From the UHGV virus genome UHGV-1365945: a stretch of DNA of 40,754 bases; one strand, written 5' to 3'. Below, piece by piece: positions 5,776 to 28,200 of the stretch. This DNA is from a virus. Under the pieces are notes generated by a model. The model was given only the letters and a program-made list of their open reading frames with translations, did no database searches and was not told the origin of the DNA. The position numbers were made by a program, and so were the translations under genes. The first letter of the stretch is position 1. Every line of letters starts with the position of its first letter.

Positions 5776-6445
5776 TTGCAGTGAAAATTTAGAAAAACTT
5801 TTTGATGGGATGTATAAGCTGAAAAGCAAATTAATCCAACCAAAATTTGACGCAGAAGTGGCCTACTCAACGAAAAAAGGTGGAATGAATTTCCAATATG
5901 CAACTCTTAAAGCGATTGAAGAAGCAATTAGAAAAGCTGCACAAGAATCAGAAAGCGGAATTGATTTCCAACAAAATGTCGTCAATGAGAATAATGCGTT
6001 AAAAGTCACAACAATTATTACTCACGTTAGTGGTCAATATATAGTTCATGGACCTTTTGAATTTCCAAACAGCGGGACAAATCCTCAAGGATTAGGAAGT
6101 TTAACGACATATGCAAGACGTTACTCGCTTTCGGCAGCGTTTGGAATTGCAGCAGATAAAGACGACGATGGCCAAACGGCAGCTGAAAAGAACAATGATA
6201 CATCGAAAGTTAATTTGATTAGCGGTAAACAGTTAGCCACGTTAAACGATCATATCAGACAACTTTCTGAGTTATCGAATTCTGAACTTGACTATGTGCG
6301 GAATGAACTAAGTAAAGAATTGAATGTTGATGTCAATGAAAACATGCCGTCTAGTATGTTCAATAAAGCTGTTGAAGTTCTGAAACAATGGATACAACAA
6401 TTCCAGCCACAACCAGAAGAAAACATTACATGGGGGCAAAGCTAA
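5768..6445 (+). CDS. erf: ERF-family single-strand annealing (recombination) protein
   Basis: Conserved ERF motifs (NFQYATLKAIEEAI..., YARRYSLSAAFGIA). Confidence 0.8.
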   Translation: MNNCSENLEKLFDGMYKLKSKLIQPKFDAEVAYSTKKGGMNFQYATLKAIEEAIRKAAQESESGIDFQQNVVNENNALKVTTIITHVSGQYIVHGPFEFPNSGTNPQGLGSLTTYARRYSLSAAFGIAADKDDDGQTAAEKNNDTSKVNLISGKQLATLNDHIRQLSELSNSELDYVRNELSKELNVDVNENMPSSMFNKAVEVLKQWIQQFQPQPEENITWGQS

Positions 6446-23950: not shown

Positions 23951-24883
23951 ATGAAGAAAAAACAATTAATGAAAATGGATATTCAAATGTTTGCTCAAAC
24001 ATGGAATCCAGACAACGTCACAGTATTAGAGAAAAAAGATGGAACAATTCCAGATAAGTACAACACTTTAATTTTAAAAGATGTGATGGAAAATTCTAAG
24101 TTAATGCAGTTGGCTAAATATGAAGAAATGGACGGCAAAGAAAAGAAATTCGAATACTTTGCAGAAGGTCCTGGGGCGTACTGGGTTGGTGAAGGCGAAA
24201 AGATTAAAACGTCTAAACCTAAATGGTTAAACGTAACGATGACTGCGAAAAAAATTGGTGTTATTATCCCAGTTTCTCGGGAATATTTAACTTATAAGAT
24301 GTCTGATTTCTTTACTCAAATGCAACCAAAAATCGCAGAAGCATTTTATAAGAAAATTGATGCGGCTACTATCCTTGATAAAGAAAATCCATTCTCTCAA
24401 TCTATTGAAAAATCTGTCATTGCAGCTAGTAATGTAATTGAGGGCGACTTGACATATGACAACATTTTAGCATTAGAGGATTTGCTTGGAGAAGGTGAAT
24501 ACGATCCGAATGCTTTCATTTCTAATCGTAAGAATCGTACAGTGTTACGTGAAGCAAGTAAAAAAATTGGTGACACAACTCAATTTATTTATGATCGTGT
24601 CAGCAATACTATTGATGGACTACCTGTAGCAGATCTAAAATCTATGGATAAAGGAAACCTTTATACTGGTGATTTTGATTACTTGCGCTATGGTATCCCA
24701 TTTAACATTAATTTCAAAATTTCAGAAGAAGCTCAATTATCTACTTTAACGAATGAAGACGGTACGCCTGTCAACTTGTACGAACAAGAATTGGTTGCTT
24801 TACGAGCTACAATGGATATTGGTTTCATGGTCATCAAAGATGAAGCATTTGCTAAGATTCAACCAAAAGCTGCGGGGGAGTAA
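23951..24883 (+). CDS. Major capsid protein (short form), plus a long form via -1 frameshift extended to 24945
   Basis: 310-aa ORF after the scaffold in conserved synteny, N-terminal MDIQMFAQ motif. A G5 tract (24874-24878) sits at the stop codon. An open -1 frame encodes SPVVGKVTPTTNGATIELT, homologous to the extension after the tail gene. A stem-loop lies 8 nt downstream of the G tract. Confidence 0.7.
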   Translation: MKKKQLMKMDIQMFAQTWNPDNVTVLEKKDGTIPDKYNTLILKDVMENSKLMQLAKYEEMDGKEKKFEYFAEGPGAYWVGEGEKIKTSKPKWLNVTMTAKKIGVIIPVSREYLTYKMSDFFTQMQPKIAEAFYKKIDAATILDKENPFSQSIEKSVIAASNVIEGDLTYDNILALEDLLGEGEYDPNAFISNRKNRTVLREASKKIGDTTQFIYDRVSNTIDGLPVADLKSMDKGNLYTGDFDYLRYGIPFNINFKISEEAQLSTLTNEDGTPVNLYEQELVALRATMDIGFMVIKDEAFAKIQPKAAGE

Positions 24884-24956
24884 CTAGCCCTGTTGTTGGA
24901 AAAGTAACACCGACAACAAATGGGGCGACAATCGAACTAACTTAGGTGGTGTTTAG

Positions 24957-25289
24957 ATGTCAAAGATAGCAAATGATGTAAAAAAATTATTAAATGGTAG
25001 TCTTGATGAAAAATTAGAAATCATTGAAAGACGTACAAAAGATCGGCTTCAAAATATATTGAATGTCACTGAGTTACCAAAAAGCTTTGATTCAGTTGTA
25101 TATGAAGTAACTTTAAAACGATTTAATCGTATTGGCCAAGAAGGAATGCAATCTTATTCTCAAGAAGGTTTATCTATGGCATTTCCAGACTCTGATTTTT
25201 CTGAATATCAAGATGAGATTGAAGAGTATAAGAACAAGGAAATAGAAGAACTTTATAAGCCTAAACGTGGGAGGTTTACATTTTCATGA
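24957..25289 (+). CDS. Head-tail connector protein (110 aa)
   Basis: Position and size in the head-tail joining block. RBS AGGTGGTG. Confidence 0.5.
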   Translation: MSKIANDVKKLLNGSLDEKLEIIERRTKDRLQNILNVTELPKSFDSVVYEVTLKRFNRIGQEGMQSYSQEGLSMAFPDSDFSEYQDEIEEYKNKEIEELYKPKRGRFTFS

Positions 25290-25621
25290 GATATTTAGAT
25301 GAAATTACCTTTGTAAAAAAATCTTCAGAATCGCATTATGATCCAAATTCAGGTGAATGGATTGAAGAAGAACCCTTTAGAAAAACTGCTGATGTCAATG
25401 CAACTGACATTGGTACAGATCGTTCTATTACTATTTTCGGAAGCATTAAAGAAGGGGCTAAGGTCATTAGGACACAGCCCCTTTTTGTTATTCCAGAATT
25501 TGATTACATTGAGTTTGAGGGTAAAACTTGGGAAGTTATTACAAGTAGAGTTCCTGCATTAAGAAATAGCTTGATTATTCAGGAAGTGATTATTGATGGC
25601 AAGAAGTCAAGTAAGAATTAA
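25286..25621 (+). CDS. Head closure / head-tail adaptor protein (111 aa)
   Basis: ATGA-coupled ORF in the connector block. Confidence 0.5.
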   Translation: MRYLDEITFVKKSSESHYDPNSGEWIEEEPFRKTADVNATDIGTDRSITIFGSIKEGAKVIRTQPLFVIPEFDYIEFEGKTWEVITSRVPALRNSLIIQEVIIDGKKSSKN

Positions 25622-25976
25622 TGGACTAGCTGGAATTTCTAAAAAACTAAAGAGAAATGTTCAACTTGATGATGTGAAAAAAGTTGTTAGAAATAACACA
25701 GCAGAATTAACCGCTAATATGCAAGCTGAAGCCGAAAAGGTGTTAACTGGACACTGGGAAGGTAAAAAGTTTGTTAAACCTACAGGGGCAACAAAAAGAA
25801 GTATCGTTATGAGGCTTTCGAACAATGGTTTTTCTGGGCATACAGGACCAGGAACAGAATACGCACCGTATTTAATAAACGGTACGAGATTTATGGTGAA
25901 ACGTGATTTCTTTTTACCACCGCTGAAACAACAAAAAGTGAAATTTAGAACGGACTTGGAAAGGTTGATGAAATGA
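25596..25976 (+). CDS. HK97 gp10-family tail-component protein
   Basis: [17 protein letters not shown]...[13 protein letters not shown]...YAPYLINGT motifs typical of the HK97 gp10 family. Start at ATG 25596 (RBS GGAAGTG). Confidence 0.6.
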
Positions 25977-26362
25977 TTAAAACAAGAGATCAATCAATCT
26001 TCGATGAAGTGTATAAGAAGTGTCAATCACTGGGTTATGAAACCTACGATTATAAACCTATGAATGATGTAGGTTATCCATTTGTCGAATTAGAAGATAC
26101 TCAGACACTGCACCAAGCCAATAAAACTGATATTAAAGGTTCGGTTACATTGAATCTATCTGTATGGGGATTGGCAAAAAAACGTAAACAAATATCGGAT
26201 ATGGCTTCAGCAATTTTTGCTGAGGCTCTATCTATTTCTGAAACGGAAGGTTATTATTGGTCGCTTAATATTCAATCAAGCGGTATTCGGGTAGTAGATG
26301 ACATTTCGACTAACACACCATTGAAGCGGGCAATGATATCTTTAGAATTCAAAATACTATAG
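25973..26362 (+). CDS. Tail completion protein (129 aa)
   Basis: Coupled ORF directly before the major tail gene. Confidence 0.5.
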
Positions 26363-26377
26363 AGAGAAGGAATATAA

Positions 26378-26908
26378 ATGGCTAATGAAGCAAAAGTAGC
26401 GGCTAAAGGTATTGATATTATTTTACTTTTCCGTTTGTTAAAAAAATCAAAAGAGGAAGCAGCATGGAAATTAGCTTTCCAGACAGAACATGAAAATACA
26501 AAAACAAAAGATAGTGACTCCGTGGCCACTAAAGATGGTCCGATTCGTATCCCAGGATCATTGGAAATTGATTTTTCAGCAACATCTATTTTATCAGTCG
26601 GTGATCCGTATGTTGATCAACTAGAAGAAGCTTTAGACAATGACGATATTATTGAAATTTGGGAAATCAACAAAGCAGAAAAAGGTACAGGAGATAATGC
26701 TGACAAGTACAAGGCAACCTATTACCAAGGATATGTAACATCATTTGGTAAATCGCCTAATGCTGAAGACACCGTAGAAGTTTCATTAGAATTTGGTATC
26801 AATGGTAAAGGCGCAAAAGGATTTGCAACATTAACTGCTGATCAAGAAGAAGTAGTTCAATATGTCTTCAAAGATACGACTATTGAAACAGCTGATCCGG
26901 GAAAGTAG
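26378..26908 (+). CDS. Major tail protein (short form), plus a long form via canonical -1 frameshift at G GGA AAG (26899-26905) extended to 26970
   Basis: 176-aa ORF in the major-tail position. A lambda-type slippery heptamer G_GGA_AAG is in the 0 frame two codons before the stop. The -1 frame encodes VDSPSVGSVTPTVDGASIELS. A stem-loop (AGCCC..CTGT..ACAG..GGGCT) lies 5 nt downstream. Confidence 0.75.
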   Translation: MANEAKVAAKGIDIILLFRLLKKSKEEAAWKLAFQTEHENTKTKDSDSVATKDGPIRIPGSLEIDFSATSILSVGDPYVDQLEEALDNDDIIEIWEINKAEKGTGDNADKYKATYYQGYVTSFGKSPNAEDTVEVSLEFGINGKGAKGFATLTADQEEVVQYVFKDTTIETADPGK

Positions 26909-26985
26909 ATAGCCCTTCTGTGGGAAGTGTAACTCCTACAGTCGATGGGGCTTCTATTGAATTAAGCTAAGAAAGGAAAATAAAT

Positions 26986-27444
26986 ATGGTGGATACTTTT
27001 AAAATTTATAAAGGCCAAACCGAAGTTGTTTCCGGCACATCACCTTTAACTATAACAGGAATGGGACCTAACACCTCTGTGCCAGTTGGTGAGTACCAAG
27101 TAACTCGTGTTGTTAATGGGAAAGAATCAGAGCGAGTAGATATTCCAGCTTTTAAAACATTGTCTATTGCTGTAACTGGCTTAGAGTTTTCTCCTAAAAC
27201 ATCAACAGCAGATGCGGGTACTGCAGGTAGCCGACAAATCACAGCAACTGTCTTGCCTGAAAATGCAACCAACAAAAAAGTAACCTATAAGATTACGCCT
27301 GAAACAGAAGGTCTTGCTGTCTCTGAAACAGGAAATATTACTTGGACAGAAGCGGTACCGGCTGGTGTTTATACCACAACAGGAACAACAGAGGATGGTA
27401 AAAAAACAGCTCAACACACCTTAACATTGAATAATCAAGCTTAA
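26986..27444 (+). CDS. Bacterial Ig-like (Big_2-type) domain protein, probably a tail decoration protein
   Basis: Thr/Gly/Val-rich beta-sandwich-like sequence (ITATVLPENATNKKVTYKITPETEGLAVSETGNITW). Own RBS GAAAGGAAAA. Confidence 0.55.
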   Translation: MVDTFKIYKGQTEVVSGTSPLTITGMGPNTSVPVGEYQVTRVVNGKESERVDIPAFKTLSIAVTGLEFSPKTSTADAGTAGSRQITATVLPENATNKKVTYKITPETEGLAVSETGNITWTEAVPAGVYTTTGTTEDGKKTAQHTLTLNNQA

Positions 27445-27499: not shown

Positions 27500-27850
27500 A
27501 TGCAAATCGAAATTAAAGGAAAAAAATATAACTGTATTTTTGGAGTCAAGTTTATTCGTGAATTGGATAAGCAGCATGGGGTAGTTCGCAATGATGTAAA
27601 TCTTGGGATGGGACTAACAACATCATTACCGCAGCTAGTAAGTGGAAATATCGTTGTTTTATCTGATGTACTTTACACAGCTACCATTACGGAAAAAAGT
27701 AGACCTTCTAAGGATGAAGTAGATGAGTTTGTTGAAACTGTTGATGATATTGAGGCGTTATTTGATGAAACGTTGAAAAACTTAGAAGAAAGCAATGCGG
27801 GAAAGTTAACGGTCAGAAATTTCAAGAAAGCTCTGATGGAGAACAAGTAA
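27500..27850 (+). CDS. Tail assembly chaperone (gpG-like)
   Basis: Position before the tape measure gene. Contains slippery heptamer G GGA AAG at 27799-27805 in the 0 frame. Confidence 0.65.
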   Translation: MQIEIKGKKYNCIFGVKFIRELDKQHGVVRNDVNLGMGLTTSLPQLVSGNIVVLSDVLYTATITEKSRPSKDEVDEFVETVDDIEALFDETLKNLEESNAGKLTVRNFKKALMENK

Positions 27851-28200
27851 GAGAGGAACTAACCTCAGCTGAAGCTTATGAAAATATTCTTATTAATTGT
27901 TTTCGTTACCTAGAAATTACTGATTTATCAGAAATTGAACGAATGACTTTGTATGAATATGAAGTTAGGCTATTGGCGTTTCAGTTAAAAAGACTTGACC
28001 ATGAAAGAGACCTCTATCTCCAAGCTTGGCTAAATAACCAAATCAAGGCGACTAAAGGTAAAAAATCTGAACCTTATTTCAAGGAATTCAATAAGTTTTT
28101 TAATTATGAAGAACAAGAAAAGTTAATTTTGGGTAAGTCATTAATTGATGAAAAGATTGATATAGGGGCAATTGATTTATTAAGAAAAGCAAATAAGTAG
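27500..28200 (+). CDS. Tail assembly chaperone fusion (gpGT-like) made by -1 programmed frameshift at 27799-27805
   Basis: The -1 frame is open from 27769 to 28200 and continues in ORF 27943..28200. Canonical G_GGA_AAG heptamer. Confidence 0.6.

Follow-up and report, generated by a model that had tools for sequence, protein, structure and literature searches.

The stretch of DNA analysed here (UHGV virus genome UHGV-1365945, 40,754 nucleotides; in the following, the window) belongs to an Enterococcus faecalis siphophage of the EFC-1, IME197 and phiEf11 group. Directly past the stop codons of its major capsid protein gene and its major tail (tube) protein gene, the -1 frame encodes two homologous peptides of 21 residues, in the following the tags, which are very probably translated by -1 frameshifting and are almost certainly strands A and B of a split FN3 domain. 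Strands C to G of this domain, together with an Ig-like domain of the Big_2 family, are assigned to the product of a 152-aa open reading frame (ORF) downstream of the tail gene, in the following the acceptor, and the tags probably dock this protein on capsid and tail by strand complementation. The original prediction made on this DNA comprised long forms of both proteins; the identity of the peptide (FN3 strands A-B) and the partner gene directly downstream go beyond it. The carrier genes, their slip sites and their extensions are located as follows:

23951–24883, plus strand: major capsid protein gene, 0 frame, 310 aa, 35.2 kDa in the short form (Pfam PF05065 Phage_capsid, E 1.9e-31)
24874–24880, plus strand: capsid slip site G_GGG_GAG, in phase, abutting the stop codon TAA at 24881–24883
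24880–24945, plus strand: capsid -1 extension VTSPVVGKVTPTTNGATIELT and its stop codon TAG at 24943–24945; proposed donor tag, FN3 strands A-B
26378–26908, plus strand: major tail (tube) protein gene, 0 frame, 176 aa, 19.3 kDa in the short form (Pfam PF06199 Phage_tail_2, E 7.4e-18)
26899–26905, plus strand: tail slip site G_GGA_AAG, in phase, abutting the stop codon TAG at 26906–26908
26905–26970, plus strand: tail -1 extension VDSPSVGSVTPTVDGASIELS and its stop codon TAA at 26968–26970; proposed second donor tag

The capsid gene ends in GCT GCG GGG GAG TAA, and its -1 frame, GGA GTA ACT AGC CCT ..., reads (G)VTSPVVGKVTPTTNGATIELT; the tail gene ends in CCG GGA AAG TAG, and its -1 frame reads GKVDSPSVGSVTPTVDGASIELS. 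In both genes the slip site consists of the final two sense codons, with the stop codon next in the A site. A -1 frame open for about 20 codons past both stops and encoding homologous peptides had been claimed, and this was confirmed: the two extensions are identical at 13 of 19 residues in their core and at 41 of 60 nucleotides. Neither -1 stretch contains an ATG, GTG or TTG start codon, in agreement with the claim that the extensions have no start of their own, and ahead of the Pro codon just 11 (capsid) and 6 (tail) codons of the -1 frame are open. The sequence GGGGGAGTAR occurs once in the window (0.02 expected), and so does GGGAAAGTAR (0.17 expected). When all long ORFs of the window were scanned, no other one carried a tag-like shifted-frame peptide across its stop. 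The tail heptamer was found in the 0 frame before the stop codon, as had been predicted; it conforms to X_XXY_YYZ in the 0-frame phase and is the validated gpG/gpT frameshift heptamer of TP901-1 (PMC4493119). The predicted long forms are a capsid protein of 331 aa and a tail protein of 197 aa, each longer by 21 aa (about 2.0–2.1 kDa). Their predicted junction peptides are AAGEVTSPVVGK or AAGGVTSPVVGK for the capsid and ...TADPGKVDSPSVGSVTPTVDGASIELS for the tail, and the predicted extension peptides are the C-terminal VTPTTNGATIELT and, for the tail, VDSPSVGSVTPTVDGASIELS.

To compare these regions, a sample of 80 viral loci and 12 genomic ones, each surrounding a homologue of the 152-aa ORF, was used (L numbers; their proteins have P numbers), together with annotated phages. 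Tags were searched for first with a pattern and then without one, by reading through the stop of every long ORF in each of the two shifted frames. The peptide, which according to the original prediction should be conserved in related phages, was present in 57 distinct contexts as a homologous sequence of 19–25 residues, invariably in a shifted frame and beside a recoding motif at the stop codon. The ORFs that carry it are of capsid size (about 280–394 codons) or of tail tube size (about 150–211 codons), and every lineage examined has exactly two tags, one past the capsid gene and one past the tail gene. Among these carriers, the phiEf11 capsid, the Brochothrix capsid and the Brochothrix tail proteins gave no BLASTP similarity to the proteins of the window. 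The slip motifs of the 57 contexts were distributed as follows:

G_GGG_GAR-stop: 29
G_GGA_AAG-stop: 10
C_CCA_AAA-NNN-stop: 7
CCC_TAA (+1): 3
A_AAA_AAA-stop: 2
A_AAA-stop: 2
A_AAA_AAG-NNN-stop: 1
G_GGA_AAC-stop: 1 as classified, plus a second in L079
G_GGG_GAG variant with one more codon ahead of the stop: 1

Pairwise differences between the 41 unique tag DNAs numbered 4563, 3949 and 8851 at codon positions 1, 2 and 3 of the tag frame, and 3428, 3909 and 5680 outside the codons fixed by the search pattern.

Published work on relatives of the window phage is in accordance with these data. The window capsid protein is 39% identical over its full length to Cps of Listeria phage A118, and the slip sites occupy the same position; that of A118 is G_GGA_AAC-TAA, and Cps is experimentally known to be decoded with a -1 frameshift (PMC5009743). 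The major head protein of phiEf11 virions runs as two bands that differ by about 3 kDa (Stevens et al. 2016, PMC5221750); for its gene, ORF10, the authors proposed that ribosomes shift by -1 on AAAAAAA ahead of a stem-loop and so add 21 aa, a view which they called speculative because peptides of the extension were not recovered (PMC5221750). ORF10 resembles the window gene in phage group, tag family (KKIEAPKVESVIPTTDGASIVLS), length of the extension (21 aa) and stem-loop, and differs from it in that the capsid gene is unrelated (BLASTP E 14) and the slip site is A_AAA_AAA. The phiEf11 tail extension is reached in frame by one extra base, CCA GAA AAA GTA as against CCG GGA AAG TAG in the window; ORF15 (L001 4484–5077) is annotated as a protein of 197 aa, and every tail subunit would carry the tag. 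This homologous in-frame tail tag, the FN3 nature of the peptide and ORF16 as its partner were not noticed by the phiEf11 authors. From the comparison and these published cases, it is very probable that both tags of the window phage are translated by -1 frameshifting, giving long capsid and tail forms as originally predicted.

Two-length capsid and tail proteins made by recoding had been brought forward as a precedent from Listeria phages. The precedent is valid for the two lengths; the tail gene of A118 and A500 uses a +1 shift, not -1. In these two phages Cps is decoded with -1 and Tsh with +1, in PSA both are decoded with +1, and in Lactobacillus phage A2 gp5 and gp10 are both decoded with -1 (PMC5009743). 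All four phages share with the window recoding at the 3' ends of the major capsid and tail genes, with two lengths of each protein. They differ from it in appending whole domains or other sequences, with no homology between what is added to the capsid and to the tail protein, and in having neither a split domain nor a separate acceptor gene. The Cps extension of A118 and PSA is a HeH/SAP-like domain, the Tsh extension of A118 is a Big_2 domain and that of PSA an acidic tail; as relatives of the window tag, the Listeria phage extensions were rejected, since they are not homologous.

The two-tag layout was also found with a +1 shift at CCC_TAA, in Staphylococcus siphophage IMEP5, in two metagenomic phages and in Carnobacterium phage cd4. 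CCC_TAA is of the shifty-stop type, as in Listeria phage PSA. The tail-like gene of cd4, which ends in AAA TAG TAA, has its tag in the +1 frame but shows no convincing slip mechanism. The +1 tag loci are:

L005: 60–210 and 3880–4080
L077: 1154–1349 and about 3850
L088: 3330–3560 and 6230–6460

A second group of E. faecalis prophages (L041, L044, L050, L056 and L063, at about 5900–6000) has C_CCA_AAA one codon before the stop in both the capsid and the tail gene. In loci of the L041 type the tail tag (…TPTTTGVIIDMKEGI) overlaps the ribosome-binding site of the acceptor gene, and the tag stop lies 2 nt before the acceptor ATG (TAACATG), which suggests that synthesis of the acceptor is translationally coupled to frameshifted ribosomes.

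Each slip site of the window is followed by a hairpin:

24887–24926, plus strand: capsid hairpin, outer stem GCCC(U)/GGGGC, inner stem GUUGUUGG/CCGACAAC, 6 nt past the heptamer (folding)
26911–26952, plus strand: tail hairpin, 5 nt past the heptamer (folding)

The capsid hairpin has a dG of -17.4 kcal/mol (z -3.7; 0 of 200 shuffles equally stable) and the tail hairpin one of -19.3 kcal/mol (z -3.5; 1 of 200), so that the stem-loop claimed shortly downstream of each site was recovered at spacers of 6 and 5 nt. Both are built in one register. Counted from the Pro codon, pair 4-27 is formed by U and A in the capsid hairpin and by C and G in the tail hairpin, which agrees with the covarying stems of the original prediction as far as the window copies are concerned, and pair 8-23 is U.G versus G.U. 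Over 48 distinct -1 contexts, the 47 nt past the stop gave a mean z of -2.7. GGG encodes the Gly of the DGA motif in 31 of 37 unique tags, with GGG at 10% of Gly codons as background in the window structural genes; the codon preceding Pro ends in C in 35 of 37 tags, in which it encodes 8 amino acids (background, C at 10% of third positions). Facing Val and Pro wobble positions are complementary in 27 of 37 tags, where 17.6 would be expected (p about 2e-4, without correction for phylogeny). A stable RNA structure located 5–9 nt downstream and under selection is thus present at both sites. Homologous regions decoded in frame are unstructured (GH15 ORF148, z -0.02; GH15 ORF149, +0.59; internal copy in P0144, +0.36), and therefore the hairpin goes with recoding, not with the peptide. 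In the in-frame tail copy of phiEf11, two stem-breaking changes weaken the hairpin to -12.9 kcal/mol, compared with -19.3 in the window, as if a frameshift stimulator that had lost its use were decaying. A restriction of structure to -1 sites was considered and rejected: a few +1 sites are structured too, and the informative control is the in-frame homologues.

The acceptor gene and its features are:

26971–26977, plus strand: Shine-Dalgarno sequence GAAAGGA of the acceptor gene, 8 nt upstream of its ATG (sequence reading)
26986–27444, plus strand: acceptor gene for a putative decoration protein of 152 aa, 16.0 kDa (weak Pfam Big_2 match)
Acceptor residues 1–60: FN3 strands C-G without A-B, as assigned below
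Acceptor residues 62–144: Big_2 Ig-like domain

The ORF lies in the frame of the tail tag, beyond one stop codon and 15 nt that contain its ribosome-binding site. Its homologues, about 60 from Enterococcus, Oceanobacillus, Virgibacillus and metagenomes, without exception start at strand C, with an N-terminus of M, 0–4 residues and [FY]K[IV]YKG. A phmmer search with the first 62 residues of the acceptor returned 88 cluster representatives, most of them matching from residues 1–5. The N-terminal domain of P0054 matches the Pfam fn3 model (PF00041) only at positions 29–82 of 84 (31.4 bits; curated cut-off 25), and for this reason the acceptor domain is taken as an FN3 domain without strands A and B; GH15 ORF149 and ORF150 match fn3 from positions 29–33 with weak scores. 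In cd4, both the capsid and the tail gene carry +1-frame tags past CCC_TAA or AAA_TAG that end in the canonical ...TLSWE, and the two combinations of tag and acceptor give full-length fn3 matches (positions 2–83, 36.1 bits, and 1–83, 37.4 bits), compared with 20 bits for the acceptor on its own.

Unsplit relatives give the same assignment. The window tag, spacer and ORF align without a break with residues 575–739 of P0144 (38% over 174 aa, E 2e-27) and are also colinear with P0124 (41%, E 2e-18). In L101, a tail gene that ends in T_TTA_AAA-TAG continues directly, in the -1 frame, as P0124, and the capsid gene carries no tag. A further arrangement was seen in L080–L087 at about 5990, where a close homologue of the window capsid gene ends in CCG GCG GGG GAG TAA and its -1 frame continues directly as a Big_2 domain, an FN3 adaptor being absent; in gene calls this extension appears as separate proteins of 102 aa (P0056, P0059). 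From the colinearity with P0144 and P0124, together with L101 and L080–L087, the window region is read as a classical frameshift-appended FN3-Big_2 module, which on sequence evidence is cut in the B-C loop by a stop codon, a ribosome-binding site and a start codon, with a second copy of A-B placed on the other major structural protein. It is nearly certain that the tags represent strands A-B of an FN3 domain that has been split.

Tag and acceptor are paired across the sample. Four sequence types of tag accompany four matching types of acceptor, and the type of the tag tracks that of the acceptor, not that of the carrier. The acceptor gene lies past the tail gene in the window and past the capsid gene in L061, L064–L073 and L076, and both carriers are tagged. 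An FN3 domain in which strands A and B are missing retains only one strand of a three-stranded sheet, and its core is open; a peptide that supplies strands A-B is the obvious ligand of such a truncated domain. The following mechanism is proposed. A portion of the ribosomes that end the capsid gene would slip back one base on G_GGG_GAG, a portion of those that end the tail tube gene would slip on G_GGA_AAG, and the shifted ribosomes would append 21 residues (VTSPVVGKVTPTTNGATIELT on the capsid, VDSPSVGSVTPTVDGASIELS on the tail). The A-B hairpin, exposed on this subset of capsid and tail tube subunits, would complete the truncated FN3 domain of the acceptor by beta-strand complementation. A single small gene would thus decorate both head and tail with an Ig-like domain; the efficiency of frameshifting would set the occupancy of the decoration, and the shortness of the tag would leave the assembly of shell and tube undisturbed. 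Docking of the downstream Ig-like protein in this way is judged probable from the sequence data, and by analogy with other phage Ig-like domains an adhesive role may be inferred for Big_2.

Both halves also occur in one chain: P0012 and P0145 begin with an acceptor and end in a tag. In Kayvirus GH15 (L004 928–2336) a daisy chain was found with all parts in frame, in which ORF148 ends in a tag, ORF149 consists of acceptor, Big_2 and tag, and ORF150 of acceptor only. These three ORFs lie outside the main structural module and adjoin a sigma factor gene. Their masses of 23.17, 17.86 and 7.83 kDa are those of Gp70, Gp71 and Gp72 of phage ISP, proteins that were detected in ISP virions (PMC3170307). 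On balance, the data favour the wider view that Bacilli phages use a natural two-piece, non-covalent tag and catcher, in which an FN3 A-B hairpin of about 20 residues captures an FN3(C-G)-Ig-like protein, recoding sets the dose, and proteins with two halves chain head to tail. Capsid and tail subunits would receive the hairpin through a -1 or +1 frameshift or by in-frame decoding, and the system would extend over Enterococcus siphophages, prophages of Brochothrix, Carnobacterium, Oceanobacillus and Virgibacillus, Staphylococcus siphophages and therapeutic Kayviruses.

Several results weigh against this account in one or another of its parts. The capsid slip site, claimed at the place equivalent to that of the tail gene, does abut its stop codon, but it is not a canonical X_XXY_YYZ heptamer, and after the shift the A-site tRNA-Glu would re-pair with GGA via a central G.U; G_GGG_GAR followed by a stop nonetheless recurs in 29 of the 57 contexts, in divergent phages. 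RNAalifold on 37 tag sequences returned just three CCC/GGG pairs and no covariation term. In the register imposed from the window copies, 68% of cells pair, compared with 35–47% when the hairpin partner is slid by 1–3 columns, and covariation across the family is only modest. The window's own tag and acceptor fall below every Pfam FN3 threshold, the ORF having no significant FN3 match, and a profile of 17 concatenations of tag and acceptor found nothing significant among PDB sequences. The AlphaFold2 model of P0012 (pLDDT 94 overall) has its truncated domain confidently folded without strands A-B (pLDDT 95 or more) and its own C-terminal tag disordered (pLDDT about 65) and undocked; a Foldseek search of this model against the PDB gave just generic tandem Ig and Big_2 neighbours. 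Single-sequence AlphaFold2 of the window tag, spacer and ORF reached a pLDDT of 47, and this model is too poor to interpret. Mass spectrometry of phiEf11 recovered no peptides of the capsid extension, and the phiEf11 gel resolved only proteins of at least 27 kDa, so that an acceptor of 16 kDa would not have been visible there (PMC5221750).

The confident fold of the truncated P0012 domain and its undocked tag are also what would be expected if the frameshifted tags were made and acted alone, for example in the tuning of assembly, or were relics of an ancestral full-length Ig-like extension. The downstream Ig-like protein would then reach the virion otherwise or be non-structural, and the truncated FN3 domain would fold alone. 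Relic tags are conceivable because unsplit ancestors exist (P0144, P0124, L101). Neither form of this explanation accounts well for tags kept on capsid genes without an acceptor downstream and on mutually dissimilar carriers, for a tag type that follows the acceptor type across four sequence types, for the retention of two tags and one acceptor in every lineage examined, or for proteins of daisy chains that hold both halves; the truncation, moreover, lies exactly at strand C in the approximately 60 homologues and in most of the 88 cluster representatives. It is considered rather unlikely. A fusion at the tail gene, in which a second recoding event (readthrough of TAA 26968–70, or bypassing) would yield a tail protein-FN3-Big_2 product, agrees with the separation of tag and acceptor in the window by just one stop codon and 15 nt, and with an acceptor in the tag's frame in the window, phiEf11, Brochothrix phage BtpYZU02, Staphylococcus phage IMEP5 and GH15. 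A frame shared by tag and acceptor in about 4 of about 10 lineages is, however, to be expected by chance, and in L060–L079, the L041-type loci and cd4 tag and acceptor are in different frames, and therefore readthrough fusion is excluded there. The capsid tags without an acceptor downstream and the strong Shine-Dalgarno sequence and ATG of the acceptor's own also speak against fusion. The tail protein of phiEf11, which carries the tag in frame, ran on the gel at 28 kDa rather than at about 38 kDa, with no sign of a covalent adduct; the size predicted for it is 21.5 kDa (PMC5221750). A fusion of this kind is very unlikely.

It was also considered that the repeated 60-nt element is untranslated and acts as an RNA or DNA signal (a hairpin for stabilising or processing mRNA, or a linker for module exchange), the likeness of the peptides being a by-product. 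Stable hairpins in both copies and the mosaic junction with phiEf11 inside the capsid tag (window 24895) would suit such a signal. The excess of substitutions at third positions of the tag frame, however, indicates translation, as does a peptide pattern kept across widely diverged DNA (41 unique sequences). The tag is, furthermore, always reachable from a recoding motif, has an in-frame version in phiEf11 and is colinear with protein domains of unsplit relatives. The element had no Rfam match, and the reading of the hairpins as terminators was rejected because there is no U-tract. An untranslated element is thus extremely improbable. Finally, shifted frames could stem from sequencing or assembly errors, or from recent pseudogenising indels, in genes that are truly in frame, and phiEf11 does differ from the window by one base within the purine run at the tail site. 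The same frame relation recurs in dozens of independent assemblies and with six or more slip motifs, +1 cases included, and the chance of such an origin is practically negligible.

The docking of a separate protein by translated tags, the reading preferred here, has partial counterparts in known systems. Fraser et al. (2006, cited in PMC5009743) are said to have described that Ig-like domains are appended to phage structural proteins by frameshifting. In SPP1 gp17.1*, an FN3 domain is added via a +1 shift (Auzat 2008, as cited in PMC5221750). Like these cases, the window phage would display an Ig-like or FN3 part on some of its capsid or tail subunits, and frame and direction of the shift vary by lineage; the relatives in L080–L087 and L101 show the classical arrangement itself. 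It differs from them in that no complete Ig-like or FN3 domain is fused to the carrier: the 21 aa are strands A-B only, followed by a stop codon, and the remainder of the FN3 domain, with the Ig-like domain, is a separate product for two carriers. Strand complementation is known from the donor strand of chaperone-usher pili, from SpyTag/SpyCatcher (engineered from split CnaB2) and from FN3 fragment complementation in vitro; SpyTag forms an isopeptide bond. These systems share with the proposal a strand-deficient Ig-like fold that is completed by a short peptide on another chain. They are bacterial pili or engineered reagents, whereas the window would represent a phage decoration fed by frameshifting, with complementation inferred.

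Two-length capsid or tail proteins produced by recoding are already established (A2, PSA, A118, A500), and the phiEf11 capsid case was proposed in 2016. In the literature searched, coverage of which was incomplete, no description was found of phage decoration by a split FN3 domain and strand complementation, nor any mention that capsid and tail proteins bear homologous tags or that such tags are half of an FN3 domain, nor any of the partner gene, of daisy chains or of the G_GGG_GAR motif. If the proposal is true, it gives a function to the short and puzzling frameshift extensions of capsid and tail proteins, explains the presence of one peptide on two unrelated structural proteins, and adds a new mode of attachment for decoration proteins, with one domain split between carrier and decoration. 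It would also provide a ready-made display tag of 20 residues and its partner for the engineering of phages of Gram-positive bacteria, including Enterococcus and Staphylococcus therapy phages. G_GGG_GAR-stop is a recurrent, non-canonical candidate for a -1 slip signal. Systematic annotation errors were flagged: the long capsid and tail forms are unannotated, and homologues of the acceptor ORF in relatives are labelled 'major tail protein'.

The gene order in this part of the window is scaffold, capsid, head-tail adaptor genes, tail tube, 152-aa ORF, two tail chaperone ORFs and tape measure. At the nucleotide level the region matches IME197 and EFC-1 at 98% and phiEf11 at 92% from window position 24895 onward. 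This position, at which similarity to phiEf11 begins (phiEf11 side, L001 2995–3060), lies inside the capsid tag, and the capsid genes upstream are unrelated; the conserved tag and hairpin therefore sit exactly at the mosaic junction, and may serve as a homologous linker for the swapping of capsid modules. The IMEP5 record KX156762 (L005 1677–3933) contains a duplicated block in which the tail tube gene and the ORFs next to it are present twice, the copies having identical 3' ends; this is probably an assembly artefact. A third -1 site of the window, G_GGA_AAG in phase at 27799–27805, lies within the tail assembly chaperone gene. In the chaperone ORFs (27500–27850 and 27943–28200) the -1 frame continues into an ORF of 85 aa, corresponding to the conserved G/GT shift, and one heptamer, G_GGA_AAG, is thus common to the tail tube tag of the window and its chaperone shift.

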